From Patescibacteria group bacterium (GTDB lineage Bacteria > Patescibacteriota > Patescibacteriia > GWA2-46-9): a DNA stretch of 64,000 nucleotides. The position numbers were made by a program, and so were the translations under genes. The stretch covers positions 4,253 through 68,252 of the forward strand of contig JBAZXG010000001.1 of the NCBI GenBank assembly GCA_041660005.1, in the 5' to 3' direction. The stretch's first letter is position 1. Every line of letters starts with the position of its first letter. This document shows, piece by piece, positions 34,653-52,280 of the stretch. The notes below the pieces were generated by a model. The model saw nothing but the letters and a program-made list of their open reading frames with translations. It had not been told where the DNA came from and made no database searches.

Positions 34653-35291
34653 TTACGTAGAGAGAAGGGCTTGAATAAGGAGCGAAAAACCACTCTGGCC
34701 AAGGATAATACTTGCCACCCAAAAAATGAGCGGTGCAATGATATTCGCGAAAAAAAGAATGAAAATCAGGAATAAAAACATGCCATACTGACGCAAAAAA
34801 TCAGCCACATGGTCAAAACGCGGCGGCAGCATTGCCAAAAGAACGTGCGATCCATCGAGTGGTGGTATGGGAACAAGGTTGAAAACAGCGAGTAGAACGT
34901 TGGCATAGACTACAATTGTTGCAACCGATGCCATGACTGCTGGTAGCGGCACAAAACGGACAATGAGGCCAAAAACGCAAGCAAGCGCCAAATTTCCCGC
35001 TGGACCAGCGAGCCCCACCAAGGCCGGTCCATATTTTGGATATTTTAAGTTGTACGGGTTAAACGGAACAGGTTTCGCTGCTGCAAACATAAACCGGCCA
35101 CCGGTTGAAAAAAACAACAGCGCCGGCAGTAGGAGCGTCATGAACGGATCAATGTGTGCCGCTGGATTCAACGTCAGTCGCCCGAGATCACGCGCAGTCG
35201 AATCCCCCATCTGGTCAGCTGCCCAGCCATGCATATACTCGTGAAAAACCGCCGAGAGCAAAAGTATTACAAAAAATGCTGCAATCATCAT
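34653..35291 (-). CDS. Site-2 protease family (peptidase M50) membrane zinc metalloprotease
   Basis: HEYMHG (HExxH) in a TM helix. NLVPIPPLDGSH motif. Confidence 0.8.
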   Translation of the reverse strand: MMIAAFFVILLLSAVFHEYMHGWAADQMGDSTARDLGRLTLNPAAHIDPFMTLLLPALLFFSTGGRFMFAAAKPVPFNPYNLKYPKYGPALVGLAGPAGNLALACVFGLIVRFVPLPAVMASVATIVVYANVLLAVFNLVPIPPLDGSHVLLAMLPPRFDHVADFLRQYGMFLFLIFILFFANIIAPLIFWVASIILGQSGFSLLIQALLST

Positions 35292-35535
35292 AAAGAACCA
35301 ATCGCAAAAATAGTTTTCAAGCCAAAGCGCAGAGATGCCAGCCGAGCCACGATTAAAAAAGCGGAAGAATACCGCGTGGGTCTTTCGAGCATTTTTTGAC
35401 GTGGTGCAGGCGGCATAGATGCGGTTTGGGTGAACAAGGATTTTTAAGAGAGGTTCTGATCATGAGAATAGCGGAAGCGGGCTAAGTTCGCAAACGCGAG
35501 TGTTTACCCAATCCTCTGTTAGCGACTAGATATCG

Positions 35536-35564
35536 TTGACGCACTATTTAACATCTGGTACAAT
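35536..35564 (+). promoter_or_regulatory. Consensus sigma70-type promoter TTGACG-17nt-TACAAT for rpmB
   Basis: TTGACG at 35536-35541 and TACAAT at 35559-35564 with exact 17-nt spacing, about 28 nt upstream of the rpmB ATG. Confidence 0.5.
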
Positions 35565-35591
35565 TGGCAAACTCAAATATAGCCTTAGAAT

Positions 35592-35771
35592 ATGGCAAAA
35601 TCATGCGACCAATGTGGACGAGGTTCGGCAAAGGCGACTAGCCGCAGCCACTCAAACATTGCTACACTCCGCCGTCAATACATTAATTTGCAGACGCGGC
35701 ACATCAATGGTACGAAAGTAAAACTTTGTACTTCATGCATGCGCACGAACACCAAACGCGCCGTCGTTTAG
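35592..35771 (+). CDS. rpmB: 50S ribosomal protein L28
   Basis: Manual translation gives MAKSCDQCGRGSAKATSRSHSNIATLRRQYINLQTRHINGTKVKLCTSCMRTNTKRAVV, 59 aa. It is below the track cutoff. It is one of only two plus-strand genes in the window; the other is the AT-rich ORF at 46067-46579. Confidence 0.8.
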   Translation: MAKSCDQCGRGSAKATSRSHSNIATLRRQYINLQTRHINGTKVKLCTSCMRTNTKRAVV

Positions 35772-35802
35772 TGAGCTGTAAAAAGATTGCAAGTAAAAAC
35801 CC

Positions 35803-35830
35803 CGCTTCCGCGGGGTTTTTACGTATCGAC
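35803..35830. terminator. Bidirectional rho-independent terminator AAAAACCCCGC-TTCC-GCGGGGTTTTT
   Basis: Lies between convergent rpmB (+) and the hyf-like operon end (-). Confidence 0.6.
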
Positions 35831-35856
35831 CGTCAAACTTACTTTGTAACAAAAAA

Positions 35857-37425
35857 TTATAGATCGTTACCCGTGTACGACAAACTGAAACTTTTATTGA
35901 TGAGCGGAAAATCTGGTACGACATTATGCGCTCCGGCATGCCCCAGTAGCGACCAGTTCATAAACGAAGGGTCGCGCAAGGCAACTCTGGTAATATTGCC
36001 GCGTTCGTCGGTTTTTACAAAATAGACTATTTCCCCTCGCCATCCTTCGACCACGCTTATTGCCAGTGCATTTTTTTTGTATGGAGTAGTGCTGGCCAGA
36101 CTGATTGGTCCTTCGGGCAGGGTCTGCAGTGTTCGCTCAATTAAGGCAAGCGATGCACGCGCCTCTTTAATGCGAACATAAAATCTTGCATAAACATCTC
36201 CACTTTCTTCAGTTTCAACTGTTTTAAAACCGAGTCCTTCGTAGGCAGCATAGGGAAAATCCAGACGCGCATCAGTTTTAATGCTAACTGCCCGAGCGGC
36301 AACGCCCGTTGCTCCATGCTCTAAAGCAATTTGAAGAGCGAGTACGCCAGTACCCTTCAAGCGGTTAAGGAGCGAATCGCTATTTTCAGCAACTGCAATA
36401 ACTTCACCAAAATCTTTTGCTATGAGAGCAAGGTCTTGCAAAAGTTTTTTCTTTGCTTCATCGGTGATGTCCTTCGTCACTCCACCGCACATACTTACAC
36501 CGCGCAAAAACCGAGAGCCGGTCAACCGTTCGTTGATTTGCATCACCATCTCCCTGAGACGAGCGCCTTGCGCCCCGCCAAAATTAAACCCCGTATCAGT
36601 CATGATGGCACCAATATCACCAAAGTGATTCGCTAGCCGTTCTAATTCTGCGTACACAACGCGTAAAGAAGCAGCTCGCTTTGGCACAGTCACATCACTT
36701 AATTCTTCGAGCGCCTGACAAAACGCGAGTGAGTGGCTAAATGAACTATCTCCAGAAATTTTTTCAGACAGACGCACCATGTCCGTTGACGATAATGTTT
36801 CGAATATTTTTTCACTCCCTTTATGCGTATACCCGAGCCGAGGTTCAAGTAAAATTATTTCCTCTCCTGCCACACTAAACCGGAAATGACCCGGTTCAAT
36901 AATCCCCGCGTGAATAGGACCCACTGGTATCTCGTAGATTCCCTCCCCTCCTACTTTTTGAAACTCATATGTTCCTATTGCAGTCTCTGGTCTTGTTTGC
37001 CAGTCAAAGTCTTTTCTCAATGGATAGACGTCTGCGGGCCAATTTTCATGAAGAATGTTCGGTCGATCGTCAGGATGACCAACAGGGTTCAAACCAAAGA
37101 AAGTTCTGATTTTTCTTTCGTGATTCCAAGCTTCGTGAATATCGGCAGATAAAGATGGAAATTCATTCGTACCTTTTAAACTGATAAAAGGAACGATGAA
37201 GGCATGCTCTCCCGGCACACCGAAGACATACCAAATTCTGAAACAACCATGCTCCTCTCTCTCGTCAGTAGCGGTGATGAACTTGAGCTGCAAATTTTTG
37301 TCATACCGCAAATTGTGAGCAAGGGCACACACCTCTGACACCGCAGTTTCAAAAACAGCGGCATTGCCAAACACATCTATTTTTACGCTACTGGGAATAT
37401 ACTTTTTGAGTTGCTCAATGTTCAT
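35857..37425 (-). CDS. NuoC-NuoD fusion / HycE(HyfG)-like large subunit lacking NiFe-ligating cysteines (Ehr-type)
   Basis: RLGYTHKG replaces the RxCGxCxxxH L1 motif. The C-terminal KSFSLSYTGND replaces DPCxxCxxR. Confidence 0.7.
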   Translation of the reverse strand: MNIEQLKKYIPSSVKIDVFGNAAVFETAVSEVCALAHNLRYDKNLQLKFITATDEREEHGCFRIWYVFGVPGEHAFIVPFISLKGTNEFPSLSADIHEAWNHERKIRTFFGLNPVGHPDDRPNILHENWPADVYPLRKDFDWQTRPETAIGTYEFQKVGGEGIYEIPVGPIHAGIIEPGHFRFSVAGEEIILLEPRLGYTHKGSEKIFETLSSTDMVRLSEKISGDSSFSHSLAFCQALEELSDVTVPKRAASLRVVYAELERLANHFGDIGAIMTDTGFNFGGAQGARLREMVMQINERLTGSRFLRGVSMCGGVTKDITDEAKKKLLQDLALIAKDFGEVIAVAENSDSLLNRLKGTGVLALQIALEHGATGVAARAVSIKTDARLDFPYAAYEGLGFKTVETEESGDVYARFYVRIKEARASLALIERTLQTLPEGPISLASTTPYKKNALAISVVEGWRGEIVYFVKTDERGNITRVALRDPSFMNWSLLGHAGAHNVVPDFPLINKSFSLSYTGNDL

Positions 37426-37426
37426 A

Positions 37427-38863
37427 CTAGTAGTTGAGCGCGGCGCCTTTAATTAAAACCTGTAAAAAGGCGGGCTGATAAAAACTAAGATACAGCACCA
37501 GGGTAATGAGCGCGAACGGTGGAATAATGAGTGTCATCTTTTCTTTCTCTGGCTCTAGATCATGGGGTTTCTCTCCGAAAAACATGTCTGAAGCGTGCTT
37601 TAGAAAACCAATAAACACCATGGCGGTCAGAAGCATTGCTACCACGGTTAAAAACGGATGCAGGGTTATACCAGAAGAGAAAATTAAAATCTTGGTAAGA
37701 AAAATACCGAAGGGCGGTGCGCCCGTTATAGCAAAAATACCAATCAAAAAAAGTACACTCGTTATCGGAAGCGCGCTGAGAGCACCTTTGACCTTGGCAA
37801 TTTTGGTCGAGCTGTATTTCAAAAAAATATTTCCCGACAGTAAGAAGAGTGCCGACTTCAGTAGCGAGTGATAAATCATGTGCAGCAACGCCGCAAAAAC
37901 CCCCACACCACCCAAACCAAAACCAAGCGCAGTGATTCCCATGTTTTCAATGCTCGAATACGCCAGTAACCGTTTGTAATTATACTGCGTGAAGATTATG
38001 AATGAAGCTACAAGAATCGATAGTAAGCCGAAAATAATAAGTAGGCGCTGCGGAAAATCTGGGCCTACAGACGCCGCAGTAATCACCTTAAATCGTAAAA
38101 TCGTAATGAAGGCCACATTCAGAAGGACGCCGGACAACAGCGCGCTCACGGGAACCGGCGCCTTGCTGTGCGCATCAGGGAGCCAGGTATGCATTGGCGC
38201 AAGCCCAACTTTTGTACCGTAACCAATCAGTACAAAAATGAAAGCAATCTTAGCAATCACCGGATCAAGATGCGACGCATTGTTGAGTAAGCTCGTCCAG
38301 GTAGCAAAGCCAGTACTCGTTTGTAATGAACTGAAAAAAAGCAGTGTTCCAAAAAACGCCAGCAGTAAACCAATGGAGTTGATAATGAGATACTTCCATG
38401 CTGCCTCTACAGCTGATGGTTTGTTGTAAAAGCTAATGAGAAACGCCGTAGAAAGCGTTGTGGCTTCAATAGAAATCCAGGCAATGATAGGACTACTGGA
38501 TGAGACGGCCAGAAACATCGCCGCCAAAAAGAGATCCAGCAAAATATAGTACTGCTTAGACCGAGTAAACCCAATAATTTTTTTCGCAGTTTCTTTTCTT
38601 AGATACTGAACGGAATACGTTACCGCCGCAAGGCCGACGCAAGAAATAAGAAGCATAAGGAGCGCCCCCAAGGCATCGACGGAAAAAAATTCAGACGGAA
38701 CATAGTTCCCCGTTGCTGCAACCCTGAGAGCAACAGTCACCGATTCCACCAAAGCAACGCCCACCGCTACAACTGCCGCTACCTCAATGACAGCTCGACG
38801 CCGCACCATCAGGGTGATAAGCGCAGCCGCACATAATGAGAAAAAGATGATTGATACTTCCAT
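37427..38863 (-). CDS. Antiporter-like membrane subunit (NuoM/N, HyfF/Mrp-D family)
   Basis: 14-TM protein with complex I antiporter-like motifs. Confidence 0.7.
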   Translation of the reverse strand: MEVSIIFFSLCAAALITLMVRRRAVIEVAAVVAVGVALVESVTVALRVAATGNYVPSEFFSVDALGALLMLLISCVGLAAVTYSVQYLRKETAKKIIGFTRSKQYYILLDLFLAAMFLAVSSSSPIIAWISIEATTLSTAFLISFYNKPSAVEAAWKYLIINSIGLLLAFFGTLLFFSSLQTSTGFATWTSLLNNASHLDPVIAKIAFIFVLIGYGTKVGLAPMHTWLPDAHSKAPVPVSALLSGVLLNVAFITILRFKVITAASVGPDFPQRLLIIFGLLSILVASFIIFTQYNYKRLLAYSSIENMGITALGFGLGGVGVFAALLHMIYHSLLKSALFLLSGNIFLKYSSTKIAKVKGALSALPITSVLFLIGIFAITGAPPFGIFLTKILIFSSGITLHPFLTVVAMLLTAMVFIGFLKHASDMFFGEKPHDLEPEKEKMTLIIPPFALITLVLYLSFYQPAFLQVLIKGAALNY

Positions 38864-38867
38864 AGCG

Positions 38868-39515
38868 CTAATCTTTTAATTGCTTCATAACACTGGTGTC
38901 GAGTGACCCAAAGTGCAGATAGATCATCGAAATAAAAACAGATGCAATAACCAGCCAAATCGAGATGTCAAAAATGATACCAATCTGAAGCATTGGTGAC
39001 TGTTCAAGTCCTGCAAAAACCGCAAAGGCGACAATACTATTTTCCAGAGAAAGAATACCGATCGCCTGAGACAGTGCACCTTTACGATTAACGATTAAGA
39101 ACAGTGAGATAAGCATTGCAGAAAACGTCAGCGACAATAAAGCGTGGTTGGCAGAAAGAATATCGGTGAGCGGCAAAAACTTTTCAGAATGCGCCACGGC
39201 AGTTAAGACCGTGAGCACGATCAATGTCAGCGGTGTATTTAGATAGGTGCTACCCGAAAAGGTTAAGTCGTGTCGCTGAATCAGTCGAACAAAAAATGAC
39301 GGCGCCAACATAACCTTAACAATGAAGGTTGCCAAAATGATGAAAAGAAGCGGAGCACTACTCGTGGCCAGAAAAGAATTAAATAAAATCAACACAACAG
39401 CAAAAGACTGAATACCATAGGCAACCACGGCTTCAAAATTCTTCTTAATGAGGTGCAAATAAATAATACTTAAAAAAACTGCACCAATTAAAAGGAGTAA
39501 AAACAATGAACTCAT
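38868..39515 (-). CDS. HyfE-like small membrane subunit (hydrogenase-4 component E / NuoK-related)
   Basis: About 215-aa polytopic membrane protein at the HyfE position and size. Confidence 0.5.
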   Translation of the reverse strand: MSSLFLLLLIGAVFLSIIYLHLIKKNFEAVVAYGIQSFAVVLILFNSFLATSSAPLLFIILATFIVKVMLAPSFFVRLIQRHDLTFSGSTYLNTPLTLIVLTVLTAVAHSEKFLPLTDILSANHALLSLTFSAMLISLFLIVNRKGALSQAIGILSLENSIVAFAVFAGLEQSPMLQIGIIFDISIWLVIASVFISMIYLHFGSLDTSVMKQLKD

Positions 39516-40444
39516 AGAATTTCGATGATACCAATAGCTACTGCGCTCAAAACAAAGGAAGTTACCAGAAGATCCGGTAATCTAAAGAACCTGAACTTCG
39601 CAGTCGTGGATTCAAGAACTGCAATAATAATGCAGAGTACGAATATTTTTGCGAGAAGCGCAGCCATACCCAACAGAACGGCACTAGCGTCTGCACTCGC
39701 AGCAATGCCATAAGGGAAAAACACATTCGCACCAAGAGCGGCAAAAATAAACAACTTGTTAGACGCCGCCCATTCCATGAGCGCCAACTTCTTTCCTGAG
39801 TATTCTAAAATCATCGCCTCGTGAATCATGGTGAGCTCCAGGTGCGTGGCCGGATTATCAAAAGGGAAGCGTCCGGTTTCAGCAAGTAAAACAATAAAAA
39901 AACCTGCAAACGCCAACACCATTGGTAAAAAGTACTGAACGGTAAATAATATTCTGGCATCCGCTATCACAAAAAGATTGGTCGTTCCGACCATGAGCGA
40001 AACCGCGACGAGTGCAAGTATGAGTCCCCCTTCTGCGAGTGCGGAGACGGTCATTTCACGACTAGAACCAAACCCGCCAAAGGCACTGCCCGTATCCATA
40101 CCAGAGAGCGCCAAAAAAAACGTACCAATAGCAAGTCCATACACTACCATTAAGAGATCGCTCGTTACCGCATTGTTCAAAAAAGAAGCGAACAACGGAA
40201 TACTGGCACCGATAACTACGGTAACCGTAAAAACAATCACTGGCGCAGCAGAAAAAATCCAGGAGGCGTCTCGGCTTACTACCTCATCCTTATGCATAAG
40301 TTTCCAGATATCACGGTAGGGCTGCAGAATACTGGCTCCGTCACGATTCTGCAACTTTGCTTTAATTTTTCTGATAATGCCGACAAAGAGCGGCGACAGT
40401 ACCGGCACAAAAACAAGTTGCATTATCCAAACAAGAGTCGTCAT
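39512..40444 (-). CDS. NuoH / HycD(HyfC)-like membrane subunit
   Basis: GIIRKIKAKLQNRDGASILQPYRDIWKLMHKDE and AETGRFPFDNPATHLEL signature motifs. Confidence 0.75.
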   Translation of the reverse strand: MTTLVWIMQLVFVPVLSPLFVGIIRKIKAKLQNRDGASILQPYRDIWKLMHKDEVVSRDASWIFSAAPVIVFTVTVVIGASIPLFASFLNNAVTSDLLMVVYGLAIGTFFLALSGMDTGSAFGGFGSSREMTVSALAEGGLILALVAVSLMVGTTNLFVIADARILFTVQYFLPMVLAFAGFFIVLLAETGRFPFDNPATHLELTMIHEAMILEYSGKKLALMEWAASNKLFIFAALGANVFFPYGIAASADASAVLLGMAALLAKIFVLCIIIAVLESTTAKFRFFRLPDLLVTSFVLSAVAIGIIEIL

Positions 40445-42501
40445 ATATTTATGGTGCTAAACAACAGGGCGGCTATAACGGCCACAAAAATATACAAAAC
40501 ATACATATTGATGTTCCCGCTCTGAATCGTCTTGGCGCGCATCGACAACGCGGTAACCACCTGACGAAGCGGCTGATAAAAATAGAGCTGATAGACATCA
40601 CGCGTCGTTAAATGTACCGTCCTCGATTTTGGCAAGTACCGCATCTCTGAATCGTGGTATTCAACATCGTGCTGCATGCTCGGCTTTAAAATACCGGCAA
40701 AGATAAGCACAATGGATCGGGCAAACCCCACGGCGGTAATTTCCATGCGCGAATTAAGGTCAACGCCGCAATCCCACGTTGACCCAATACTAATTTTCTG
40801 GTTCCTATTAACGATAAACTTAACTAACCAGAAAATCAGAAGAAATGCTAAAACAAAAAAGAAAAAGAACGCGGGTGCAGAAACTGAACCGAAAGCGTTT
40901 GATGCGATAAGTGCACTACGGAAAGCTGGCGCTACAGAAAACGGAACGTTCCGGAACAGATTAAGACTGCTGCTCACGTTAACAAAGAGCGGTCCGATGT
41001 ACCCTGACAATAGCCCAAGCAGAAGGGAGAGCGTAGCTAATGACCCCATGCCCAACGTAAGCCAAAGCGACGATTCTTTGGCATGACCAACTTCAGCACT
41101 CCTCGGTCGAGCGAGAAACGTTACGCCGAAAGCTTTGACAAAACAGGCGAGAGCCAGCCCACCCGTTATAGCCAGTGCACCTGTCGCTAGTACAAAAATT
41201 AACTTTACAAAAATATCCGCTGACGCCATTCCTTGAAGCAAAACCTGAAACGTCAGCCACTCGCTAAAGAAACCATTAAACGGTGGCAAGGCAGAAATCG
41301 CCATAGAACCAATAAGAAAAAAGAAGGCGGTCATTGGCATATACTTGATGAGTCCCCCGTACTCTTCCATGTTCCGTGTATGCGTTTGGTTAATCACTGA
41401 CCCAGCGCTCAAAAAGAGGAGCGACTTGAATATGGCGTGATTCAGGGTGTGAAACAGTGCGGCAGCTAGACCGAGAAGCGCTAGTGCTTGATTACCGAGC
41501 GCTGAAAAAGTAAGCGCACTACCAATGCCGAGAAGAATAATGCCGATGTTTTCAATACTGTGGTAGGCCAAAAGTCTTTTTATATCGTGCTCCGTCAGTG
41601 CATACAGAACCCCGAGAAGGGCAGATACGGCACCAATAACGAGCACAGTTATCCCCCACCACAAAGGAATTGGCTGCAGCACATCGAAGAAAATCCTGAT
41701 CATCATGTAAATACCGGTTTTTATCATGACCCCAGACATGAGCGCCGAGACATGAGAAGGTGCGGCAGGATGAGCACTCGGTAACCAAATATGGAATGGA
41801 ATAATACCGGCCTTTGTGCCAAAGCCGATGAGCGCCAGTATAAAAATAACGTTTTTAATACCTGTAGGAACGAGTGCAACACCTGATTGAATTACTGCAA
41901 AATCGAATGAGCCGGTGAACCTATAGAACAATAAAAAGGCAAGGACAATAAATGCAGTACCAATATGCGTCATGATGAGATACAGAAATCCTGCTTTGAC
42001 GTTGTTCGTATCGTTTTTATCATAGACCACAAGAAAATACGACGCGACCGCCATAATTTCCCAGGCAATCAAAAAGAACAGTCCGTTTGATGCTGATACC
42101 ACCATAAACATGCCCGCGATGAACAAGTGATAAAAAAATCCTAAAGCACCAATACTATAGCGATCGTAAAAATGTTTTATATAGCCGACTCCGTACATTG
42201 AACAAAAAAGAGAGACGACCGAAATAATAAAAATGAAGAAAGCCGCAAGTAAATCAATATGGAAAGAGAAGGAAAGAAGTGGAAAAACCGATGTGCCTAT
42301 TGAAAAAGAAATTGCTTGTGCGCTAGAAAATGCTTGAATCGAAAAGAATATACCCCAGAGCGAACCTAAAGCTGCAAAAAAATGCTGCCAGATATTCGCT
42401 AAGGCGTTTCGTTTTCTAAAGAGTAGTGACCCCGAGGCACCTATAGCATAGAGCGATAGAAGAACACCAAAACTCATTTCAAACGACAAAGGCCCAATCA
42501 T
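40441..42501 (-). CDS. NuoL / HyfB(HycC)-like large antiporter subunit
   Basis: 686 aa. AWEIMAVASYFLV...KAGFLYLIMTHIG motif. Confidence 0.75.
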   Translation of the reverse strand: MIGPLSFEMSFGVLLSLYAIGASGSLLFRKRNALANIWQHFFAALGSLWGIFFSIQAFSSAQAISFSIGTSVFPLLSFSFHIDLLAAFFIFIISVVSLFCSMYGVGYIKHFYDRYSIGALGFFYHLFIAGMFMVVSASNGLFFLIAWEIMAVASYFLVVYDKNDTNNVKAGFLYLIMTHIGTAFIVLAFLLFYRFTGSFDFAVIQSGVALVPTGIKNVIFILALIGFGTKAGIIPFHIWLPSAHPAAPSHVSALMSGVMIKTGIYMMIRIFFDVLQPIPLWWGITVLVIGAVSALLGVLYALTEHDIKRLLAYHSIENIGIILLGIGSALTFSALGNQALALLGLAAALFHTLNHAIFKSLLFLSAGSVINQTHTRNMEEYGGLIKYMPMTAFFFLIGSMAISALPPFNGFFSEWLTFQVLLQGMASADIFVKLIFVLATGALAITGGLALACFVKAFGVTFLARPRSAEVGHAKESSLWLTLGMGSLATLSLLLGLLSGYIGPLFVNVSSSLNLFRNVPFSVAPAFRSALIASNAFGSVSAPAFFFFFVLAFLLIFWLVKFIVNRNQKISIGSTWDCGVDLNSRMEITAVGFARSIVLIFAGILKPSMQHDVEYHDSEMRYLPKSRTVHLTTRDVYQLYFYQPLRQVVTALSMRAKTIQSGNINMYVLYIFVAVIAALLFSTINI

Positions 42502-42503
42502 AG

Positions 42504-43040
42504 TTATGATGGCAGTTTACTTTCTTGCGTTTTCAAAATACGGAGCAAGTGCGCAAGAATGGTTTTGGGTGAAGGTGGATCTCCGGGAATCGCGTAGTCT
42601 ACGGGTATGACTTCTTTTACACCGTCTAATACTGCATAGGACCCTTTAAAAATACCGCCGCTTATAGCGTCGTCACCAACTGCGACAACAATTTTAGGGT
42701 CAGGCGTCGCCTCGTACGCACGGCGCACAGCAACCGCCATATTGCGTGAGACTGGGCCCGTAATGAGCAACATATCAGCATGTTTGGGAGAAGCGACAAA
42801 ATGAATTCCAAACCGTTCTACGTCGTAAAAAGCATTAGAAAGGGCGACCAACTCTTGTTCGCAGGCATTGTCGGATCCTGCGTCAACTTGTCGGATAGCC
42901 AACGACCCACCAAATAACCGTTTAATACTGTCTTGCAATTCTTTACCAAGCACGACAATGTCTGGTTGTTCTTTTTCAATATCAGTCAAAGGAATAACAT
43001 TCCTATGCGTTTTCAAAATTTTCAAAAAAAGTTTAATCAT
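42504..43040 (-). CDS. NuoB / HycG(HyfI)-like small subunit lacking 3 of 4 Fe-S (N2) cysteines
   Basis: DVERFGIHFVASPKHADMLLITGPV and TPDPKIVVAVG conserved. The C ligands are replaced: CNGC becomes DNAC, GACP becomes GDDA, PGCPP becomes PGDPP. Confidence 0.75.
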   Translation of the reverse strand: MIKLFLKILKTHRNVIPLTDIEKEQPDIVVLGKELQDSIKRLFGGSLAIRQVDAGSDNACEQELVALSNAFYDVERFGIHFVASPKHADMLLITGPVSRNMAVAVRRAYEATPDPKIVVAVGDDAISGGIFKGSYAVLDGVKEVIPVDYAIPGDPPSPKTILAHLLRILKTQESKLPS

Positions 43041-43144
43041 AATGCCGCAGAAGTAATGCGTGAACGAAACGTCCTATAATTGTTTTAATTTTGTGTGCCG
43101 CGGGGGGTCCTACGCGTTGCGCAGGACCCCCGTGGCACATTGAG

Positions 43145-43663
43145 TCAACGACGAAGGCGTACCGCCCTCTGAACGTCGACCTCATGGACTGGCTTGCCGG
43201 TTTCGTCGACCTTCTGAAGGACGGCGATCACCGACATTTGTTTGATTACACCGTCTCGTTGGCGCTGAGTGAAGTACTCGACAGTACGACGATGCGCTCG
43301 TACGACTGCACCAAACATTGCATCTTGAGTCTGGTATCCGGACGCATGCCCCTTTCCGCAGGGAAAGTGGGCATGGAGTACGAGATGTTCCGCCCCCTTG
43401 ATGAGGGCCGACTCGAGAAGATCCTCGAGTAAATGAAATCGTCTTTGTTGTGTTCGCTGCTTTCCGTACCTAAAATCAACGAACTGTGGATCTAGAACAA
43501 GGCATCCCCCGTTCACGGAATTGAGATGTACATTTCTTGTGTACTTCCAGAGTGTCTCCAGAAGATCAGCCGAATGGCTGCCATCTCCGCACGCGGCCAG
43601 TACGACATGACCATCTCTCGGGAGCGTTCTCGCCCCTAGTGGCTTCAGATATCGTTGCTCCAC
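43145..43663 (-). CDS. Hypothetical protein on a GC-rich island
   Basis: 172-aa ORF in a roughly 60% GC segment. Imperfect hairpin at 43097-43140 downstream. Strand assignment is uncertain. Confidence 0.35.
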   Translation of the reverse strand: MEQRYLKPLGARTLPRDGHVVLAACGDGSHSADLLETLWKYTRNVHLNSVNGGCLVLDPQFVDFRYGKQRTQQRRFHLLEDLLESALIKGAEHLVLHAHFPCGKGHASGYQTQDAMFGAVVRAHRRTVEYFTQRQRDGVIKQMSVIAVLQKVDETGKPVHEVDVQRAVRLRR

Positions 43664-43994
43664 TTCCTCTTCTCCCCTTGCCGCATCTGGCGGCTAAAAA
43701 CTCGACGCGCACATCACGCGCCGGCTTGCAGCCGAGTTTACGCCTGCTTTTTAAAAATGTCAAGATAAAACAACCAATAATTCAAAAATCTCCTCCGTTG
43801 GGCGGAAAAACTTCAAGTCAAAAATTTCCACCAGTCGTTCGAGATCCTGAGAGGTTCTCTCGGACACTGAACGGAAAGCGAACTCGTCCTTACTAATAAA
43901 TTTGGGTGTGTCCCGACGTAAGGCCGAGATCCCGATTCAATTGATTTTATAAAGTAGGTAGCGTCGGGACAAAAGAGTAACAAACAGTCGCGAT

Positions 43995-44087
43995 GTCCCG
44001 TCTGACGGGACCAAGGACATTCATGTAGTTCTTGGTCAAAATTATTGCCGAATAGCATTTGTACCATAGTTCGAACTATAGTACAAA
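43995..44087. repeat. About 95-bp repeat module, left copy: CCCGTCTGACGGG hairpin, spacer, palindrome GTACCATAGTTCGAACTATAGTAC
   Basis: Homologous to 46838-46931 (about 70% identity, same orientation) and partly to 63300-63350. Confidence 0.6.
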
Positions 44088-44177
44088 ATAAAAAAACAGT
44101 GGCTTTGAAAGCGGTTTAAAAAATACTACTCATCATCCTTACATTCTCAAGTATGTAAGGATGAGAAAATTAATATT

Positions 44178-44735
44178 GTAATCCTTCAAGGTCTCTTTTT
44201 TCTACTCTTTCGACTATGCTCACAGCAGATTGCTTAGGAGAGATAGGATCATTTTTACCTTTCGTATAAATGGCAACCCTTCGACTACGCTCAGGGTTAT
44301 TGTTTCTTCCTTATACAAAATTTGAAATCCTACGCTACGCGTTGGTAATCCTTCAGCTACGTTCAGGATCATTTTTACCTTTCCTTGAGGAAAGGTAAAA
44401 ATGAAAAACCTCCCGGCGGGGAGGACAAAAAATTGATAAAAGCAAGCTTCACGTATTGGTCTCATTTTGGCTGAAGGCCAGTTGGGCGATTGCGATCATG
44501 TTCGGCATCGTTGTGAAAATCACGCCGAGCGGAATGAGGCAATTGTTCGCCGCCGGTGCCCGCACCGTACGACCACAGTCGTGCGGAATAAAGACTCCAT
44601 TGCACCCATGTTGTCCCAAAAGAGAATCCAATAATGTTGTGAAGCTGCTTGCCCATTGAAGGGCTCATTAAGTTTAACCCCGTGATAAAAAAAGTCAATA
44701 AATGATAAGAGTAATCCCTCGGCTACGTCGTTTTG
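44178..44735. repeat. Array of degenerate 17-20-bp direct repeats (consensus aatccTTCGACTACGCTCAGG) with interspersed hairpins, iteron-like
   Basis: Copies at about 44178, 44204, 44270, 44322, 44346 and 44711. GGATCATTTTTACCTTTC occurs twice. Confidence 0.45.
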
Positions 44736-44890
44736 ACTTCTCTCGGGATGAATCTTTACGCTTCACTTTGTATTACAAAATATTATAGGTAAAAGATTCA
44801 TAAGTGACTCGAGGCGGCTCCGGAATATCCCTTTTGCAGGACATCCGGAGCCGCCACGATTCGGGTTGAACTAGCGCCGGATGGGGCGCG

Positions 44891-45487
44891 CTAGTTGGGC
44901 GTCGTCTGCGAACCGCACGGCGTACTGCATGTCGGACATGCAGGAGTCCCGTCGGAACATAGCCGCAAAAGCGAGATGACGCCGTCGTCGGGCATCTGAC
45001 AGACCTCCGTGTTCGCGTCCCATGAGTTCAACGCGACACTCGTGAGCTCCAGATCAATGATGGCCCATGACTGATTCCAGACGTCGTCGCCGCCGACTTG
45101 GTCGGCCGGAAGGGCCCAGAAGTTCTGGAAGAAAAGATGGGCGCACCGCTGCGTCTTTTTTCCCCGGAACTTCAAAATCGCCGGTTTCAGCGAGTTGCCC
45201 AAGACCGCGCCGTCCTGGTCAGTGTCGAAAGCCCTTCCAGTGACGAGCATTTTCTCGTACTGGTTTGCCCTCGTGTAGCATGCGGCGACCTCGAGGAGGT
45301 CAGTCACCTGACACGAGTCGCCGGACCAAAGCTGGCGATCGACGTACGTCCACGAGCCGTAGTCGAAGTACGAGCACCCGACTACTGACGCATTGCGGAA
45401 CGTCGCCGCCTCGGCTTGCGGGGCCGTGGCGAACAACGAAACGACGCACAAGAACGCCGCGAGAACGAGAAAACGGATACGCTTCAT
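44891..45487 (-). CDS. Secreted cysteine-rich hypothetical protein on a GC-rich island
   Basis: Signal peptide MKRIRFLVLAAFLCVVSLFATAPQAEA. About 12 Cys. Perfect 11-bp hairpin terminator GGCGGCTCCGG...CCGGAGCCGCC at 44808-44853. Confidence 0.55.
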   Translation of the reverse strand: MKRIRFLVLAAFLCVVSLFATAPQAEAATFRNASVVGCSYFDYGSWTYVDRQLWSGDSCQVTDLLEVAACYTRANQYEKMLVTGRAFDTDQDGAVLGNSLKPAILKFRGKKTQRCAHLFFQNFWALPADQVGGDDVWNQSWAIIDLELTSVALNSWDANTEVCQMPDDGVISLLRLCSDGTPACPTCSTPCGSQTTPN

Positions 45488-45652
45488 GATTTTCCCTCCG
45501 GAAAATTTCCCTTTTCAGGGATGGTTGTGCCCATGAGGTCGGTCGCATCTGTTGGCGACAAACTCACATGAACCGATGAACCTAGCATAAATTGAGGGAA
45601 ATGTCAAGAATAAATGACAAAAATATTTGAAAAATCTTTTTTAAATTTAAAT

Positions 45653-45914
45653 TATAAACTCTTAACGTCCTCGGGCTGTGCCCTCGAGACTAGTTGTCCA
45701 CTTTCTTACTTGTCTAAGAAAATGGACGGAAAGAATGACACCCTCAGGACTCGGCTGGGGCATGACTGCACTCCGAAAACCGATAGTCGTGAACTCCCCG
45801 CCATACTTCTTCAGATGTAGGCGGGTCAAACAGCACGACCATTCCTTCGGTTCTCTCCGTTTGTCATTACCTACGCCGATCCTATGGGACTTTGCACTCC
45901 GCTCTGCCAAACCC
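45653..45914. repeat. About 260-bp interspersed element copy 1: terminal hairpin segment plus conserved core
   Basis: About 85% identical, in inverted orientation, to 63040-63250. Its 5' 80 bp is also found direct at 62823-62905. Confidence 0.6.
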
Positions 45915-46066
45915 TATTGTCGACCAAGGAGAACAAACATATGGCAAACAAAACGATTTCACAAATATTTTGACTTTCTGCAAGGTGACGCGTAGCATGC
46001 TGAATAGAAATATTTTTCAATAAGCGCTCAAATTGAAACGCCAACCTAAAATTTTACTCTAACAAT

Positions 46067-46579
46067 ATGGACGATTTACTGAATCAAATACAAAAAGGGC
46101 TTGATGCAAAATTATATTATCTTGCACTTTTTGCTGCCTTAGCAATACCAGATATCTGTGGTGCACTCGACTCGGAAAATGGTGAAGCCAGTCGTGATAA
46201 ATATATTGCATGGTTCGACGCTAACTTGAAAGAGTACTATGGTGACGAATTCGATGGAAAAATTTGTTATTTTTTTAGATGTTCTTTTTTGCATCAAGGA
46301 TCTTCTATCAAGCAGGAAAGCCCTTACGAAAGAATATTTTTTGCGGAACCTGGATATGGTCATAGTATGCATAATTGTACTTTTAGCAGGACAGGCGTTT
46401 CAAAAAAAGTTTTCTCATTAGATATTGATAAGTTTTGCAATGAAATGATTCAAGCATGTTCAAAATGGCAACAGAAAGTTAAAGACAATAAATTGTTTAA
46501 AAAACATTATGAAAACTTTATGAAACGATATCCCAATGGCCTCGAACCCTATATAAATGGAATACCCATAATTGGTTAA
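46067..46579 (+). CDS. Hypothetical AT-rich 170-aa protein with Rx4H (RCSFLH) HEPN-like motif
   Basis: Long ORF in about 33% GC DNA, which contrasts with its neighbours. Lys/Tyr/Phe-rich. One of only two plus-strand genes in the window; the other is rpmB. Confidence 0.5.
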   Translation: MDDLLNQIQKGLDAKLYYLALFAALAIPDICGALDSENGEASRDKYIAWFDANLKEYYGDEFDGKICYFFRCSFLHQGSSIKQESPYERIFFAEPGYGHSMHNCTFSRTGVSKKVFSLDIDKFCNEMIQACSKWQQKVKDNKLFKKHYENFMKRYPNGLEPYINGIPIIG

Positions 46580-46764
46580 TACCCTTTTTCACTCGGAGTC
46601 TGGATCTTAAAACCCATTGATGTTGTGTTGATGTGTTGTCCGGCGAAAGAAGCTGAAAAAAGTGACGGTTGTGTCTGACGAACGAGAACGTGAGAAGTTT
46701 AATTGTCACCAGCGTATGAAGACGAGCAACACCCAACACAAACACCACGGGGGTCATTTCCGCC

Positions 46765-46797
46765 GAAGGCGGATCCGCCTCTGGCGGACTTTCTCTG
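46765..46797. terminator. GGCGGATCCGCC double-hairpin element (TCCGCC-GAAG-GCGGATCCGCC-TCTG-GCGGA)
   Basis: Third copy of the repeat family, downstream of the 46067-46579 ORF. Confidence 0.4.
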
Positions 46798-46837
46798 CTA
46801 TCTAATCTTAGACAAGTAAGAAAAGTCACAACCTACA

Positions 46838-46931
46838 GCCCCGTCTGACGGGATCGAGGACGTTAACGTAGGTTTTGATAAAAAATTTTTACAAATAAAT
46901 TAGTACCATAGTCTAGACTATGGTACTAATT
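46838..46931. repeat. About 95-bp repeat module, right copy: CCCCGTCTGACGGGA hairpin plus 34-bp perfect palindrome AATTAGTACCATAGTCTAGACTATGGTACTAATT
   Basis: Direct repeat of 43995-44087. Confidence 0.6.
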
Positions 46932-46990
46932 TAAAACTTGTCTTTTAAAAAACTTTTCTTAAAGAAAATAAGAAAAGTTACAAATTTCTC

Positions 46991-47425
46991 TTAGGCTCGT
47001 GGTAAATCCTCTGGCGGTGCTTTATAAAATCCAGACCGCATTAATTGATCGTCTTTCGTGGCTAATATATTTGCCGCTTCATCTAGCGCAACAAGTAATT
47101 TAATAAATTCTTCTACGCTCACTGCTGCGTGAAAATCTCGCTGCATCAACTCGTGGAACTCAGTAATTGTTTTCCGTAATGTTATTGCATTGATTCCTCT
47201 TTCACGCTGACCGAGCGCTTCCGCTTGAGTATAAATTTCACTCACAACACCTCCTAATTCCCAAAGTGTTCGATGCAGATACTGTCCGAGTTCTTGTGTG
47301 CCTAAATCTCTTGTTTCAAGATACCCCTTGTGCAGAGCAACAAAAGCCCGCACACGTTCAACAAGAGCTTTTAACTCCTCTGCTTTACGCATTTCGCTCG
47401 CCCCTTCGGAATCGTGCTCGCCCAT
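46991..47425 (-). CDS. Hypothetical alpha-helical protein immediately downstream of atpC
   Basis: ORF track entry. 12-bp gap to atpC. No recognisable motifs. Confidence 0.45.
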   Translation of the reverse strand: MGEHDSEGASEMRKAEELKALVERVRAFVALHKGYLETRDLGTQELGQYLHRTLWELGGVVSEIYTQAEALGQRERGINAITLRKTITEFHELMQRDFHAAVSVEEFIKLLVALDEAANILATKDDQLMRSGFYKAPPEDLPRA

Positions 47426-47436
47426 AGTAACAAACT

Positions 47437-47898
47437 TTATGTATCCTGGAGAACGCCTTCTGAACCCACGCTATGCTTGCCGCGATGACGTTTTCGCTCT
47501 GCAATGTGTAAGCGCGCAAGTGAACGCTGCAGCTCAGCAGCAGCATCAGTGTAGTGTTCAGTGTCAACACGTTCGGTCTCCATTATTTGCTTCGCACGTT
47601 CTTTAGCCGCTTTTGCTCTTTCGACATCAATTTCGTCAATGTGCTCGGCAGCGTCTGCCAAAATGATAACCTTGCTACCCGCTTGCACTTCGATAAAACC
47701 ACCCGCCACAAAAATTGATGTAATATCATTACCTCTTTTTATGGTTAGCTCCCCGGGCACGAGCGCGCTAACGAGCGGGATGTGATTTGGCAAAATAGTA
47801 ATTTCGCCGGTGGTCGTCGGCAGTGTTACCTGATCGACCGTCTCTTTATAAACGGTTCGCTCGGGAGTAGTGATTTCGAAATCAATCATAGTAATTAA

Positions 47899-47910
<12 letters not shown>
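47437..47910 (-). CDS. atpC: ATP synthase F1 epsilon subunit
   Basis: Beta-sandwich N-terminal (ITILPNHIPL...) followed by a helical C-terminus. Confidence 0.85.
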
Positions 47911-49830
<1,920 letters not shown>

Positions 49831-49834
<4 letters not shown>

Positions 49835-50742
49835 ACTCCCAAAGCTAATCGCCCAGCGCTAATTTCAGCGAGTTCACTTGTTATACCACTCTGCCGAATT
49901 TGGTTTAAGGTTAAAGTAAAGTCTTCTTTAAGATCCTGCGCAGCATCTGAGGCGTTCCTCATCGCCAACATGCGCGAGGCATGCTCTGCGGCATTAGATT
50001 CCTGCAATGCCTGATAGAGTTGCACTTCGATAAGGCGAGGAACGAGACGAAGTAAAACGGCGCTAGCACTTGGCTCGAAAAGATGCACGGCTTCATCCTC
50101 AGTAGTAGACTCTGCGGCGTAATCATGTGCCGTATGACCCAAGTTTGCATCGGGTTCAAGAATCGGTAACAACCGACGCACGCGTGGCACCTGTTTCAAC
50201 ATCGAAATAAAATCGGTATAAACAACAGAAACCTCGTCATACTCTTTATTCACATAGCCCGACATAGCGAGTTCCACAATAGGCGTCATTTGCGCTGTTA
50301 TATTCTCGCGGTCATTACGTTCAAATTCCGCAGCAAACGCTGCGCCTCGCTTAGACAAATAATCCCGCCCTTTTTTACCGAGCGCCACTATTTCGACAGA
50401 GACACCCGGAGTTTCTTCTTTGATTGTTTTACTGTAGGCGCGAGCAACTTCGGCAACTTTGGTGTTGTACCCGCCAGCCAGTCCCCTATTTGAAGACATG
50501 ACAATCAGCATGACGCGACGACGCGGACGAACAGATAGAAGTGCATGCGTAGTGCCGTCCAATTTAGCTGTGACGGAATGCAACATATCCCAAGCAAGAG
50601 TTGCATAACGGCGAGATTGCTGCACCGCACTAATTGCTCGCTGCATTTTTGCAGCAGACACCAGCTCCATGGCGCGTGTAATTTGCCGGATGTTAGTAAC
50701 ACCCTTAATTCTACGCTTAATTTCTCTGGTGGAAGCCGGCAT
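49831..50742 (-). CDS. atpG: ATP synthase F1 gamma subunit
   Basis: Conserved N- and C-terminal helices (ITSELAEI...). Confidence 0.9.
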
Positions 50743-50748
50743 AAAAAA

Positions 50749-52278
50749 TTAACTGATCGTCAAAAACGATTCGTTAAAAGACTGCGTCGCCTTGGTGAGT
50801 TCTGCACCTTCACTATCTTCTATCTTGCCCGCTTTAGTAATGCGGCCAACTAAATCGCGGTTCGTGCTGTGTAGGTGCTTTAAGAATTTCTTTTCCCACT
50901 CTTTCAGACGATCAACTGGCACGGCATCAGCATACCCATTGACTGCCGCATAAAGAACAAACACCTGATCAATAACATCCATTGGTTCATATTGCGCCTG
51001 CGTCAGTAGCTCGGTTACGCGTTTACCGCGCTCAAGTCGCGCTTTGGTTTCTTCGTCCAAATCTGAACCGAACTGGGCAAAGGCCGCGAGCTCTCGATAT
51101 TGCGCGAGGTCGAGGCGCAGCTTGCCGGCTACTTGTTTCATGGCTTTAATTTGCGCAGCTGAACCAACACGAGAAACAGAAAGCCCCACATTGAGCGCCG
51201 GGCGAATACCCTGATAGAAAAGATCAGATTCAAGATAAATTTGCCCGTCAGTAATGGAAATAACGTTCGTCGGAATGTAGGCAGAGACGTCCCCCGCTTG
51301 CGTTTCAATAATGGGTAGCGCGGTGAGTGAGCCACCGCCCTCCTTCTCACTCAAACGTGCCGCACGCTCGAGCAAACGCGAATGCAAATAGAAGACATCC
51401 CCAGGATAGGCCTCACGACCTGGCGGACGCTTCAAAAGTAGTGAAATTTCTCGATAGGCAACCGCGTGCTTAGAAAGATCGTCGTAAACAACGAGCGCAT
51501 CCTGTTTATTATCTAGGTAATGTTCACCCATGGCGCAACCTGCGTACGGCGCCAAATACCCGAGCGCCGCAGAATCAGACGCACCAGCAACAACAACGGT
51601 GGTGTACTCCATGGCGCCTCGCGCTTCAAATTCACCAACAATTTTTGCCACCTTCGATTCTTTTTGACCGATGGCGACATAGATGCAGTGCACACCCTTA
51701 CCTTGCTGGTTAATGATTGCATCAATCGCAATAGCTGTTTTTCCGGTTTGGCGGTCGCCAATAATGAGCTCACGCTGACCGCGACCAATAGGAATCATGG
51801 CATCAATTGCCTTAATGCCGGTTTGAAGCGGCGTATCGACTGACTTACGAGTAATAACACCAGGCGCAATGCGCTCAACCGGACGCTGGTGCACTTCACC
51901 TTTGAGTGGTCCTTTACCGTCAATCGGTTCACCAAGCGGGTTAACAACGCGCCCGACAAGTGCAGGTCCTGTCGGAACGGAAAGCACTTCGCCTGTACCT
52001 TTAACAGAATCCCCAGCAGACAACTTTGCGGCGTCTCCCAGGACAACAGCACCAATACTGTCTTCGAGTAAGTTCAAGGCAAGTCCGTAAACAATCTCGT
52101 TTTTATTCGTTGTAAAGGCCAAGAGTTCAGAAGATTTGGTGTTCGGTAGACCCGCAATCACCGCAATGCCGTCCCCTACCTCGAGCACAACACCAACAGT
52201 ACTTACCTTGGGCGAAACGTCAGCCGCCTCAAGTTTTTTTCTTAATTGCTCGACAATTTTTTCAGAAATTGATGCCAT
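50749..52278 (-). CDS. atpA: ATP synthase F1 alpha subunit
   Basis: GDRQTGKT P-loop. 509 aa. Confidence 0.95.
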
Positions 52279-52280
52279 AA

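Follow-up and report, generated by a model that had tools for sequence, protein, structure and literature searches.

An Ehr-family gene cassette from a CPR bacterium has lost its NiFe and 4Fe-4S cluster sites and may encode a redox-independent ion translocator

Results

The locus contains six genes of the Hyf type

The window, a stretch of 64,000 nucleotides from a metagenome-assembled genome of the Patescibacteria (CPR), contains six co-directional genes on the minus strand at positions 35857-43040, exactly the limits given in an earlier note on this DNA (Table 1). No reading frame is broken, stop codons overlap with start codons, and the intergenic gaps measure 2, -4, -4, 4, and 1 nt. Searches with Pfam and NCBIfam models, together with PDB matches to subunits of formate hydrogenlyase (FHL), confirmed the Hyf-type gene content and order that the note had described. 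Its label "hyf/formate-hydrogenlyase-like" is one of ancestry and says nothing on function. The cassette belongs to a family with thousands of homologues at 60-79% identity, found in many CPR lineages and in some non-CPR bacteria.

Table 1. Genes of the cassette and of the neighbouring ATP synthase operon, with their positions in the window
Feature	Position	Strand	Matches and remarks
Small subunit (EhrS / NuoB / HycG-like), 178 aa	42504-43040	-	PF01058, E=1.4e-25
HyfB/HycC-like antiporter-type subunit, 686 aa	40441-42501	-	PF00361; NCBIfam "hydrogenase 4 subunit B"
HyfC/HycD/NuoH-like subunit, 310 aa	39512-40444	-	PF00146, E=4e-46
HyfE-like membrane subunit, 215 aa	38868-39515	-	NCBIfam HyfE, E=1.2e-12, below cut-off
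HyfF-like antiporter-type subunit, 478 aa	37427-38863	-	PF00361, HyfF models
Large subunit (EhrL; NuoC-NuoD fusion, HycE-like), 522 aa	35857-37425	-	PF00329 + PF00346
F1Fo ATP synthase operon (atpB, E, F, H, A, G, D, C)	47437-54370	-	Pfam: a, b, delta, alpha, gamma, beta, epsilon
ATP synthase c subunit	53225-53449	-	Part of the F1Fo operon

The ligands of the NiFe site and of the proximal cluster are lost

The best solved relative of the large subunit is HycE of Escherichia coli (7z0s_E). The residue alignment between the two (E=1e-70) places the four NiFe cysteines of HycE at S224, S227, S516, and G519, and these Ser/Ser/Ser/Gly residues are present in 119-120 of the 120 closest homologues. 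The absence of both NiFe CxxC motifs, claimed in the earlier note, is thus upheld for all four cysteines, but the motifs had been misplaced. The former L1 site is 222-KISGDSSFSHS-232, and the proposed N-terminal replacement, RLGYTHKG, aligns instead with RLFYVHRG of HycE, a motif present in all relatives. The former L2 site is 514-SLSYTG-519, relative to which the proposed SFSLSY lies two residues out of register. The quinone ligands of complex I, H38 and Y87 of Nqo4 in T. thermophilus, align with I176 and G225.

The small subunit was aligned with its solved relatives HycG (7z0s_G, E=4e-29) and MbhJ (6cfw_J), and its AF2 model predicts a NuoB/HycG/MbhJ fold. In the alignment CNGC has become D57-N-A-C60, GAC has become G-D123-D124, and PGCPP has become PG-D154-PP. 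The former ligand positions of the proximal 4Fe-4S cluster are therefore D57, C60, D124, and D154, and three of the four cysteines are gone, as proposed from the sequence at the outset, with C60 remaining. Among the 120 closest homologues, D57 is present in all, D124 in 119, and C60 in 116, and the D154 position holds Asp in 99 and Asn in 21. The substitutions at the cofactor sites are not due to chance, since they are near-invariant traits of the family. We also considered that cysteine ligands might be present and simply misaligned; the alignments and the 120 homologues show that the loss is real.

The window also lacks a ferredoxin-like subunit and NuoE/F/G, in line with the initial reading: a CxxCxxCxxxC motif is absent from the entire window in all six frames, and Pfam gave no match to NuoE/F/G or another Fe-S family in 36 window ORFs, all lying outside the ribosomal-protein stretch. 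The ferredoxin motif occurs inside none of the CPR-type cassettes. A HycF-like ORF is present in 5 of 5 true hydrogenase loci, and a 2x[4Fe-4S] domain is fused to the small subunit in 6 of 39 other Ehr loci. The cassette thus has the subunit set of a group 4 [NiFe] hydrogenase without the L1/L2 cysteines, the cluster cysteines, or the ferredoxin-type subunit, and within the window the features of complex I (the Nqo4 H38/Y87 quinone ligands, N2, NuoI, and NuoE/F/G) are likewise missing. With no NiFe site, no proximal 4Fe-4S cluster, and no ferredoxin-type subunit, the complex cannot carry electrons. Nor can it produce or consume H2.

The cassette is placed in the Ehr family

[quoted passage not shown] They are defined by group-4-hydrogenase-like subunits and a large subunit without NiFe ligands (PMC6349859, PMC10284858), and the same six-subunit composition is listed for the Geobacter Ehr (PMC7894505). 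They are widespread, and the literature assigns them no function. Like the cassette, Ehr complexes combine NuoL-like, NuoH-like, HyfE-like, and second antiporter-like subunits with a large and a small subunit, and their NiFe cysteines are replaced in an S-x-S-G pattern, with the same pocket motifs.

Judged by sequence comparison, the cassette is a CPR-type member of this family: it combines the loss of the NiFe ligands with the large-subunit signature and a six-subunit composition that has no dedicated electron-input module. The large subunit carries the Ehr-wide motifs VGPIHAGIIEPGHFRFS, ERISGD, and NKSxxLSYxGNDL; the last two and the beta1-beta2 loop are common to 35-38 other Ehr, whereas hydrogenases differ. 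In a neighbour-joining tree, built without support values, the large subunit groups with Ehr and the CPR-type clade is sister to Nitrospiraceae/Chloroflexota Ehr. The motifs, the tree, the missing cofactor ligands, and the CPR host all support the earlier suggestion of an Ehr-like, redox-dead module in a metabolically reduced organism.

The small subunit sets the clade apart. The four proximal-cluster cysteines (CCCC) are kept in 39 of 39 other Ehr loci sampled but not in the window's clade, where CPR-type loci have DCDD, DCDN, DADD, TADD, DPDD, or SEGD at these positions. A single CPR-type clade has lost the cluster cysteines, in two patterns, D-C-D-D and, in a sister subfamily, S-E-G-D. When the 150 nearest clusters at 50% identity were compared, at least 95 had CCCC, and the ligands were lost in about 15. 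The gene order differs as well: S-B-C-E-F-L, with the small subunit first, in the window's clade and B-C-E-F-L-S in other Ehr. Compared residue by residue with cluster-bearing Ehr, the large-subunit pocket is conserved, and its three motifs are almost invariant with or without the cluster.

A previous study found the CPR large subunits to be monophyletic within Ehr and to miss the metal-binding cysteines, with a patchy distribution that suggests lateral transfer (Jaffe et al. 2020, BMC Biol 18:69, PMC7304191). The window's clade is almost certainly the one described there, and the existence of CPR Ehr without NiFe ligands is therefore already known. That study covers the large subunit only and is silent on the cluster ligands of the small subunit, the membrane subunits, and the ATP synthase. 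What is new is the restriction of the cluster-cysteine loss to one clade, the absence of a ferredoxin subunit, the selection acting on the genes, the intact antiporter residues, and the linkage to the atp operon.

Among better-known machineries, the E. coli hydrogenase-4 (Hyf) and formate hydrogenlyase-1 (7Z0S) have the same types of HyfB, C, E, and F subunits and provide the best solved relatives HycE, HycG, HycC, and HycD, but their NiFe site, Fe-S clusters, HycF/HyfH ferredoxin subunit, and formate dehydrogenase are missing here. Complex I, MBH, and MBS/Mbx share the NuoB-NuoD-NuoH interface module and the antiporter-type subunits; they retain a NuoB-type cluster and a NuoI-type subunit, whereas the cassette has neither. 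Mrp antiporters (6Z16, 7QRU, 7D3U) also have two MrpA/MrpD-type subunits with the full charged set, a NuoK/MrpC-like element, and no redox cofactors, but they miss the NuoH-, NuoB-, and NuoCD-like subunits. Since these three are present in place of the seven-subunit MrpA-G set, a bona fide Mrp antiporter was rejected; Pfam gave no match to MrpB, E, F, or G.

The membrane subunits look competent

The HyfB-like subunit scores 672 bits against the NCBIfam equivalog "hydrogenase 4 subunit B" (cut-off 667) and has HycC (7z0s_C, E=2.5e-83) as best solved relative. Its ion-pathway residues E148, K230, H237, K261, H355, K359, and E414 are all present, and they are kept in CPR-type loci wherever the residue is covered. 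The HyfF-like subunit, closest to MbhH (6cfw_H) among solved structures, keeps E133, K218, H225, H332, K336, and K391. Its TM8 position is Asn, as in a true Hyf of Propionispira, and its TM12 position is Lys in the CPR-type clade versus Glu in other Ehr. Across CPR-type loci, both antiporter-type subunits retain the TM5 Glu, the TM7 Lys/His, the TM8 residue, the TM11 His/Lys, and the charged residue of TM12. The HyfC/NuoH-like subunit (best solved relative HycD, 7z0s_D, E=3e-40) retains LAETGRFPFD and EYSG. The HyfE-like subunit has invariant E158 and E171, many of its close homologues carry PF00420 (the NuoK/MrpC family), and it is probably the NuoK/NuoJ-equivalent connector. Judged by these residues, the membrane arm appears competent.

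Purifying selection acts on the whole cassette

The dN/dS values point to purifying selection on every one of the six genes: they reach at most about 0.17 (range 0.03-0.17) and are about 0.09 for both peripheral subunits. These two are constrained no less than the membrane subunits, and the small subunit, though cluster-less, is the most conserved of the six. The loss of the cluster was accompanied by only about 11 clade-defining substitutions.

An ATP synthase operon adjoins some of the cassettes

An F1Fo ATP synthase operon lies on the strand of the cassette and ends 4.4 kb upstream of it. Adjacency of this kind is seen in 6 of 32 CPR-type loci, a lower bound given the short flanks, and in 0 of 45 loci of other Ehr or of hydrogenases (Fisher p=0.004, for loci that are not phylogenetically independent). 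The other five cases are L013, L014, L016, L020, and L029; the cassette of L014 interrupts the operon between atpG and atpD, and that of L013 begins 4 nt past atpC. The atp operon is a possible functional partner of an otherwise self-contained cassette, and the flanks of the loci examined contain no other conserved partner or accessory enzyme gene. From its motif, we take the c-ring of the window's ATP synthase to be of the H+ type, which is compatible with Na+/H+ antiport without being diagnostic of it.

Discussion

Given the loss of all metal-cluster sites, the strong conservation, and the adjacency to atp genes, the complex probably moves ions without transferring electrons. We favour, at about even confidence, a redox-independent ion translocator that has kept a cofactor-free cap and acts with the H+-coupled F1Fo ATPase. 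The earlier note had left open what the module couples to; the intact ion-pathway residues and the recurring atp linkage narrow that question. H+ would be moved by the HyfB-like and HyfF-like subunits together with the NuoH-like subunit and the HyfE-like connector, and it would most likely be exchanged for Na+ or K+ in the manner of Mrp antiporters; the NuoB/NuoCD cap would be a structural plug or gate over the NuoH-side cavity. In fermentative CPR cells, the module and the ATPase would together manage proton-motive force, pH, and cation balance. From the sequences, we infer not only the translocation itself but also the identity and direction of the ions and the role of the cap.

Several observations sit uneasily with this proposal. 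Only about one-fifth of the loci show the atp linkage. In addition, Mrp antiporters work without a NuoB/NuoD/NuoH-like cap, and it is unexplained why a pure antiporter would retain 700 residues of cap that are more strongly constrained than any other subunit. The residue-for-residue conservation of the pocket hints at a dedicated function in chemistry or ligand binding, and not at a passive plug. One could then imagine ion-gradient-coupled non-redox chemistry, in which a small molecule would be bound or converted in the former hydrogenase pocket, with coupling to ion flow through the membrane arm, and the cap would be the business end, by analogy with DabAB and NDH-1/CupA, where a complex-I-type module is coupled to CO2 hydration. 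The near-invariant motifs common to cluster-bearing and cluster-less Ehr fit this idea, as do the constraint on the peripheral subunits and the few substitutions that came with cluster loss, as if the core activity never needed the cluster. Yet analogy is its sole support, we identified no substrate, metal site, or catalytic motif, and the lack of a conserved accessory enzyme gene nearby also counts against it, so that we regard it as rather unlikely.

The pocket shared with cluster-bearing Ehr would also suit an enzyme that is still redox-active, reducing a pocket substrate with electrons from a dissociable ferredoxin, flavodoxin, or thiol protein, or through a metal centre at D57/D124/D154/C60. 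Asp can ligate metals, and the three Asp and the retained Cys are near-invariant in the window's subfamily. However, S-E-G-D in the sister subfamily and the variants DPDD, TADD, and DADD leave no common ligand set across the clade, there is no ferredoxin-type subunit or conserved partner gene, and we know of no precedent for a 4Fe-4S cluster held by three Asp and one Cys; we therefore consider such an enzyme distinctly improbable. A decaying hydrogenase or Ehr operon, now functionless, might be suspected from the loss of every cofactor site in a reduced host genome. It is effectively refuted by the selection and conservation data, and we give it almost no credence: the six frames are intact with overlapping codons, dN/dS is low throughout, the replaced positions are themselves near-invariant, and the family extends, at the identities given above, across many CPR lineages and some non-CPR bacteria.

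A more far-reaching proposal, which we advance tentatively and regard as rather unlikely, sees in the CPR-type Ehr a natural relative of complex I that is free of cofactors. The coupling interface that joins its peripheral and membrane arms would still work without electron transfer. Binding or conversion of a non-redox ligand or ion in the former hydrogenase pocket would drive or accompany ion flow, in concert with the F1Fo ATPase. The presence of the same pocket with or without the cluster, a handful of substitutions apart, suggests that Ehr complexes may generally be something other than redox machines.

How energy passes from the NuoB/NuoD/NuoH interface to the distant antiporter-type subunits is debated for complex I and its relatives. 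The present clade amounts to a natural dissection experiment, since the whole interface is under strong selection with every redox cofactor discarded, and it poses the question of what job is left for the peripheral cap once electron transfer has gone. With six subunits and no cofactors, the complex is also a small target for expression, cryo-EM, and assays of transport. In CPR bacteria, which lack respiratory chains, an ion-translocating module linked to the atp operon would, if confirmed, be a central and overlooked part of membrane potential and cation balance. The clade also occurs outside CPR, on a contig from Firestonebacteria that encodes ACS/CODH as well as a multihaem cytochrome, and on a non-CPR contig of 290 kb with a type-IX-secretion sorting domain (Por_Secre_tail).

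A six-gene operon without recognisable cofactor sites

The cassette consists of six minus-strand genes in the order S-B-C-E-F-L (see Table), with junctions of 2, -4, -4, 4 and 1 nt, and is a translationally coupled operon. Its exact proteins are found in public databases in a 'Patescibacteria group bacterium' MAG, on a 244,965-bp contig. We aligned the large subunit with E. coli HycE (7z0s_E, E=1e-70), which places the NiFe ligands C241, C244, C531 and C534 at S224, S227, S516 and G519. The earlier note was right that both NiFe motifs are lost, and misplaced the two sites. RLGYTHKG does not replace the N-terminal motif: it aligns to HycE RLFYVHRG, a stretch common to all relatives, and the actual site, at 222-232, reads KISGDSSFSHS. 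At the C-terminal site the sequence is SLSYTG. I176 and G225 stand where complex I has its quinone ligands (Nqo4 H38 and Y87). In the small subunit, whose predicted model has the NuoB/HycG/MbhJ fold, alignment with HycG and MbhJ recovers the changes described in the earlier note: CNGC became D57-N-A-C60, GAC became G-D123-D124, and PGCPP became PG-D154-PP. From homology, D57, C60, D124 and D154 are assumed to cluster in space. In line with the lack of a ferredoxin-like subunit stated in the earlier note, all reading frames of the 64-kb window are free of the ferredoxin-type motif CxxCxxCxxxC. The cassette encodes a complex of the Ehr (energy-converting hydrogenase-related) family with no recognisable redox-cofactor site and no electron-input subunit, as the proposal of a redox-dead, Ehr-like module had it.

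For each subunit we compared the 120 nearest homologues, which share 63-100% identity, and the replaced positions are almost invariant among them. In the small subunit, D57 is present in 120/120, C60 in 116/120 and D124 in 119/120, and position 154 is D in 99 and N in 21. In the large subunit, S224 and G519 are found in all 120, and D226, S227 and S516 in 119 each. The replacements are family traits, not noise.

Grades of cofactor loss among relatives

We scanned one genome per species, which gave 70 loci with identities from 70% down to 32%, extracted the six genes from each and tabulated the ligand positions. The loci fall into three grades. True hydrogenases (Propionispira, Levilinea) have CCCC at the four ligand positions of both the large and the small subunit. 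The other Ehr (39 loci, in Nitrospiraceae, Campylobacterota, Peptococcaceae, Chloroflexota and Methanomassiliicoccales) have S-(T/E/N/S)-S-G in the large subunit and CCCC in the small one. The CPR-type loci, at least 47% identical to the window and mostly from CPR lineages, have SSSG in the large subunit and have lost the cluster ligands of the small one. This loss takes two forms: D-C-D-D/N, with variants DPDD, TADD and DADD, which includes the subfamily of the window, and S-E-G-D. When 1.84 billion representative proteins were searched with the small subunit, the outcome agreed with these grades: among the 150 nearest clusters (50% identity), at least 95 had CCCC and about 15 had lost the ligands in various patterns.

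A survey of ferredoxin motifs found a HycF-like ORF in 5/5 hydrogenase loci. Among the other Ehr, a 2x[4Fe-4S] domain is fused to the small subunit in 6/39 and the proximal cluster alone is kept in 33/39; no ferredoxin motif occurs within CPR-type cassettes. The survey shows a stepwise loss. In a neighbour-joining tree, which carries no support values, the CPR-type loci form one clade, sister to the Ehr of Nitrospiraceae and Chloroflexota, a placement in keeping with the original Ehr-like assignment; the S-E-G-D forms are basal within the clade in this same tree. CPR-type loci and two Chloroflexota loci with intact cysteines share the order S-B-C-E-F-L; the order in other Ehr is B-C-E-F-L-S.

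The tree also nests the true [NiFe] hydrogenase of Propionispira (L039, L040; all eight cysteines) inside the Ehr radiation; this nesting may be artefactual, or may hint at more than one loss of the NiFe site. Three Campylobacterota loci (L043, L045, L075) have two hyf/Ehr-like cassettes in tandem, C-E-F-L then B-C-E-F-L-S, and L043 has two small-subunit genes in succession.

Ehr complexes are defined, in PMC6349859 and PMC10284858, as relatives of group-4 hydrogenases without NiFe ligands, and their function is described there and in other literature as unknown. Loss of the NiFe ligands in CPR is already known: Jaffe et al. 2020 (PMC7304191) described a monophyletic CPR Ehr clade without large-subunit cysteines. 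That study mentions neither the small subunit nor ATP synthase, and in the literature searched no other publication links Ehr and CPR. Complete loss of the Fe-S ligands as a clade-defining step appears to be new, in a comparison that covers work other than the original Ehr papers, which may mention loss of small-subunit cysteines in some Ehr. The graded series and the atp linkage also appear to be new.

Selection, ion-pathway residues and pocket

Values of dN/dS are 0.03-0.17 in all six genes (Nei-Gojobori). For the least saturated pair, the two peripheral subunits have about 0.09, no higher than the membrane subunits. Conservation is highest in the small subunit, whichever comparison is made. 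By every sequence criterion the cassette is functional. The HyfB-like subunit retains E148, K230, H237, K261, H355, K359 and E414, the HyfF-like subunit E133, K218, H225, H332, K336 and K391, and the NuoH-like subunit LAETGRFPFD and EYSG. HyfF-like TM8 has an Asn, which it has in common with a true Hyf, and TM12 has Lys in the CPR-type clade versus Glu elsewhere. The HyfE-like subunit had no meaningful match among solved structures in a PDB sequence search; the NuoK/MrpC Pfam family is found in many of its homologues, and its confident model (pLDDT 85) weakly resembles ND6/NuoJ.

Around its former active site the large subunit carries motifs (VGPIHAGIIEPGHFRFS, ERISGD, DFPLINKSxxLSYxGNDL) that are identical in cluster-bearing and cluster-less Ehr and differ from those of hydrogenases. 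Only about 11 positions across the six proteins cleanly separate these two kinds of Ehr (e.g., D->N354 in L and E->K391 in F); cluster loss was therefore not accompanied by remodelling.

Linkage to ATP synthase and other neighbours

The atp operon of the window ends 4.4 kb upstream of the cassette. Adjacent atp genes were found in 6 of 32 independent CPR-type loci versus 0 of 45 others (Fisher p=0.004), a count that is a lower bound, many flanks being short, and that comes from 32 loci not phylogenetically independent. ATP synthase is the one recurrent neighbour of the cassette. The Na+ signature Q...E-S/T is known from the c subunit of the Ilyobacter enzyme. It is absent from the c subunits of the window, L014 and L029, which consequently look H+-coupled and do not speak for a Na+ cycle.

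The flanks are otherwise unrelated between loci. No candidate redox partner recurs in those compared, and beyond the atp genes the sole repeated neighbour is, in the S-E-G-D subfamily, a gene for a DedA/VTT membrane protein; it precedes the small-subunit gene by 80-170 nt in the same orientation (PF09335 confirmed by Pfam for two). The ORF just upstream of the cassette in the window was rejected as a partner (see Table).

Features of the window and of homologous loci (L numbers)
Feature	Location	Strand	Remark
Cassette	35857-43040	-	six genes
Small subunit (S), NuoB/HycG-like	42504-43040	-	Pfam, NCBIfam
HyfB-like antiporter-type subunit (B)	40441-42501	-	above NCBIfam hydrogenase-4 subunit B cut-off
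NuoH/HyfC-like subunit (C)	39512-40444	-	Pfam, NCBIfam
HyfE-like membrane protein (E)	38868-39515	-	Pfam, NCBIfam
HyfF-like antiporter-type subunit (F)	37427-38863	-	Pfam, NCBIfam
Large subunit (L), NuoC-NuoD fusion, HycE-like	35857-37425	-	Pfam, NCBIfam
F1Fo ATP synthase operon, atpB-E-F-H-A-G-D-C	54370-47437	-	complete; same strand as cassette
ORF, 172 aa	43145-43663		no Pfam match; not conserved beside cassette elsewhere
ORF	44891-45487		no family match
ORF	46991-47425		no family match
tRNA cluster	3076-5920		four genes (Trp, Thr, Tyr, Thr)
ORF call	5458-5889		overlaps tRNA-Tyr and tRNA-Thr; probably spurious
732-aa protein, CARDB and Kre9/KNH Ig-like domains	28636-30834	-	between EF-Tu and EF-G regions
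atp genes	L013:105-4343		cassette begins 4 nt after atpC
atp genes	L014:3-4106, 11594-13556		Azambacteria MAG; whole cassette between atpG and atpD
atp genes	L020:264-3258		within 1-3 kb of cassette
atp genes	L029:12634-19191		within 1-3 kb of cassette
atp genes	L016		within 1-3 kb of cassette
DedA/VTT gene	L019:3497-4141
DedA/VTT gene	L022:3363-3968
DedA/VTT gene	L026:3418-4038
DedA/VTT gene	L028:1666-1995
DedA/VTT gene	L031:54-653
Redox genes flanking cassette	L001:2751-4343, 11619-14567
Split small-subunit gene	L003:4284-4842		overlapping ORFs, 109 and 85 aa
Heliorhodopsin gene	L078:12-797		PF18761

Possible functions

As a bona fide Mrp antiporter, complex I, hydrogenase or MBS, the complex fails a defining feature in each case. 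Its ion-pathway residues are intact, selection is strong and linkage to the F1Fo operon is repeated. We infer that it would translocate ions without redox chemistry, most simply as an Mrp-type H+/cation antiporter that would contribute, next to an ATP-driven H+ pump, to the pmf, pH and cation homeostasis of fermentative cells. Why conservation should peak in the cofactor-free cap is left unexplained by this reading. The main rival, which carries real weight, is that the conserved pocket may serve chemistry other than redox, or ligand binding, and couple it to ion flow, by analogy with DabAB or NDH-1/CupA. The lack of a ligand set common to the D-C-D-D and S-E-G-D subfamilies makes a cryptic redox function unlikely, and a relic is excluded by the selection on the genes.

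Hosts and genomic context

Two CPR-type loci have non-CPR hosts, so the clade extends beyond CPR. L001 is a Firestonebacteria contig. Its cassette has as neighbours a gene for a multihaem, NrfA-like cytochrome c552 and, in the opposite orientation, ACS/CODH and ferredoxin, a redox context much richer than in CPR. L003 is a 290-kb contig with Por_Secre_tail (type-IX-secretion sorting domain), GH10 and Fib_succ_major neighbours. Its split small-subunit gene, beside five intact genes, is due to a frameshift or else to an indel error of long-read sequencing.

Outside the cassette, the window ORFs scanned have housekeeping functions, as is usual in genomes of this kind (EF-G, triosephosphate isomerase, ScpAB, a class II tRNA synthetase of Asp/Lys/Asn type, DAHP synthase, the ATP synthase operon); five tRNA genes are also present. 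Promoter and terminator counts in 35200-47500 did not exceed shuffled expectation. Nearly all long ORFs across 1-64000 are on the minus strand, with negative GC skew over the whole length, which places the window within one replication arm. The 732-aa CARDB/Kre9 protein is probably a cell-surface protein. In L078, a 1.08-Mb Patescibacteria contig from a near-complete CPR genome, the cassette has a heliorhodopsin gene about 9 kb upstream.
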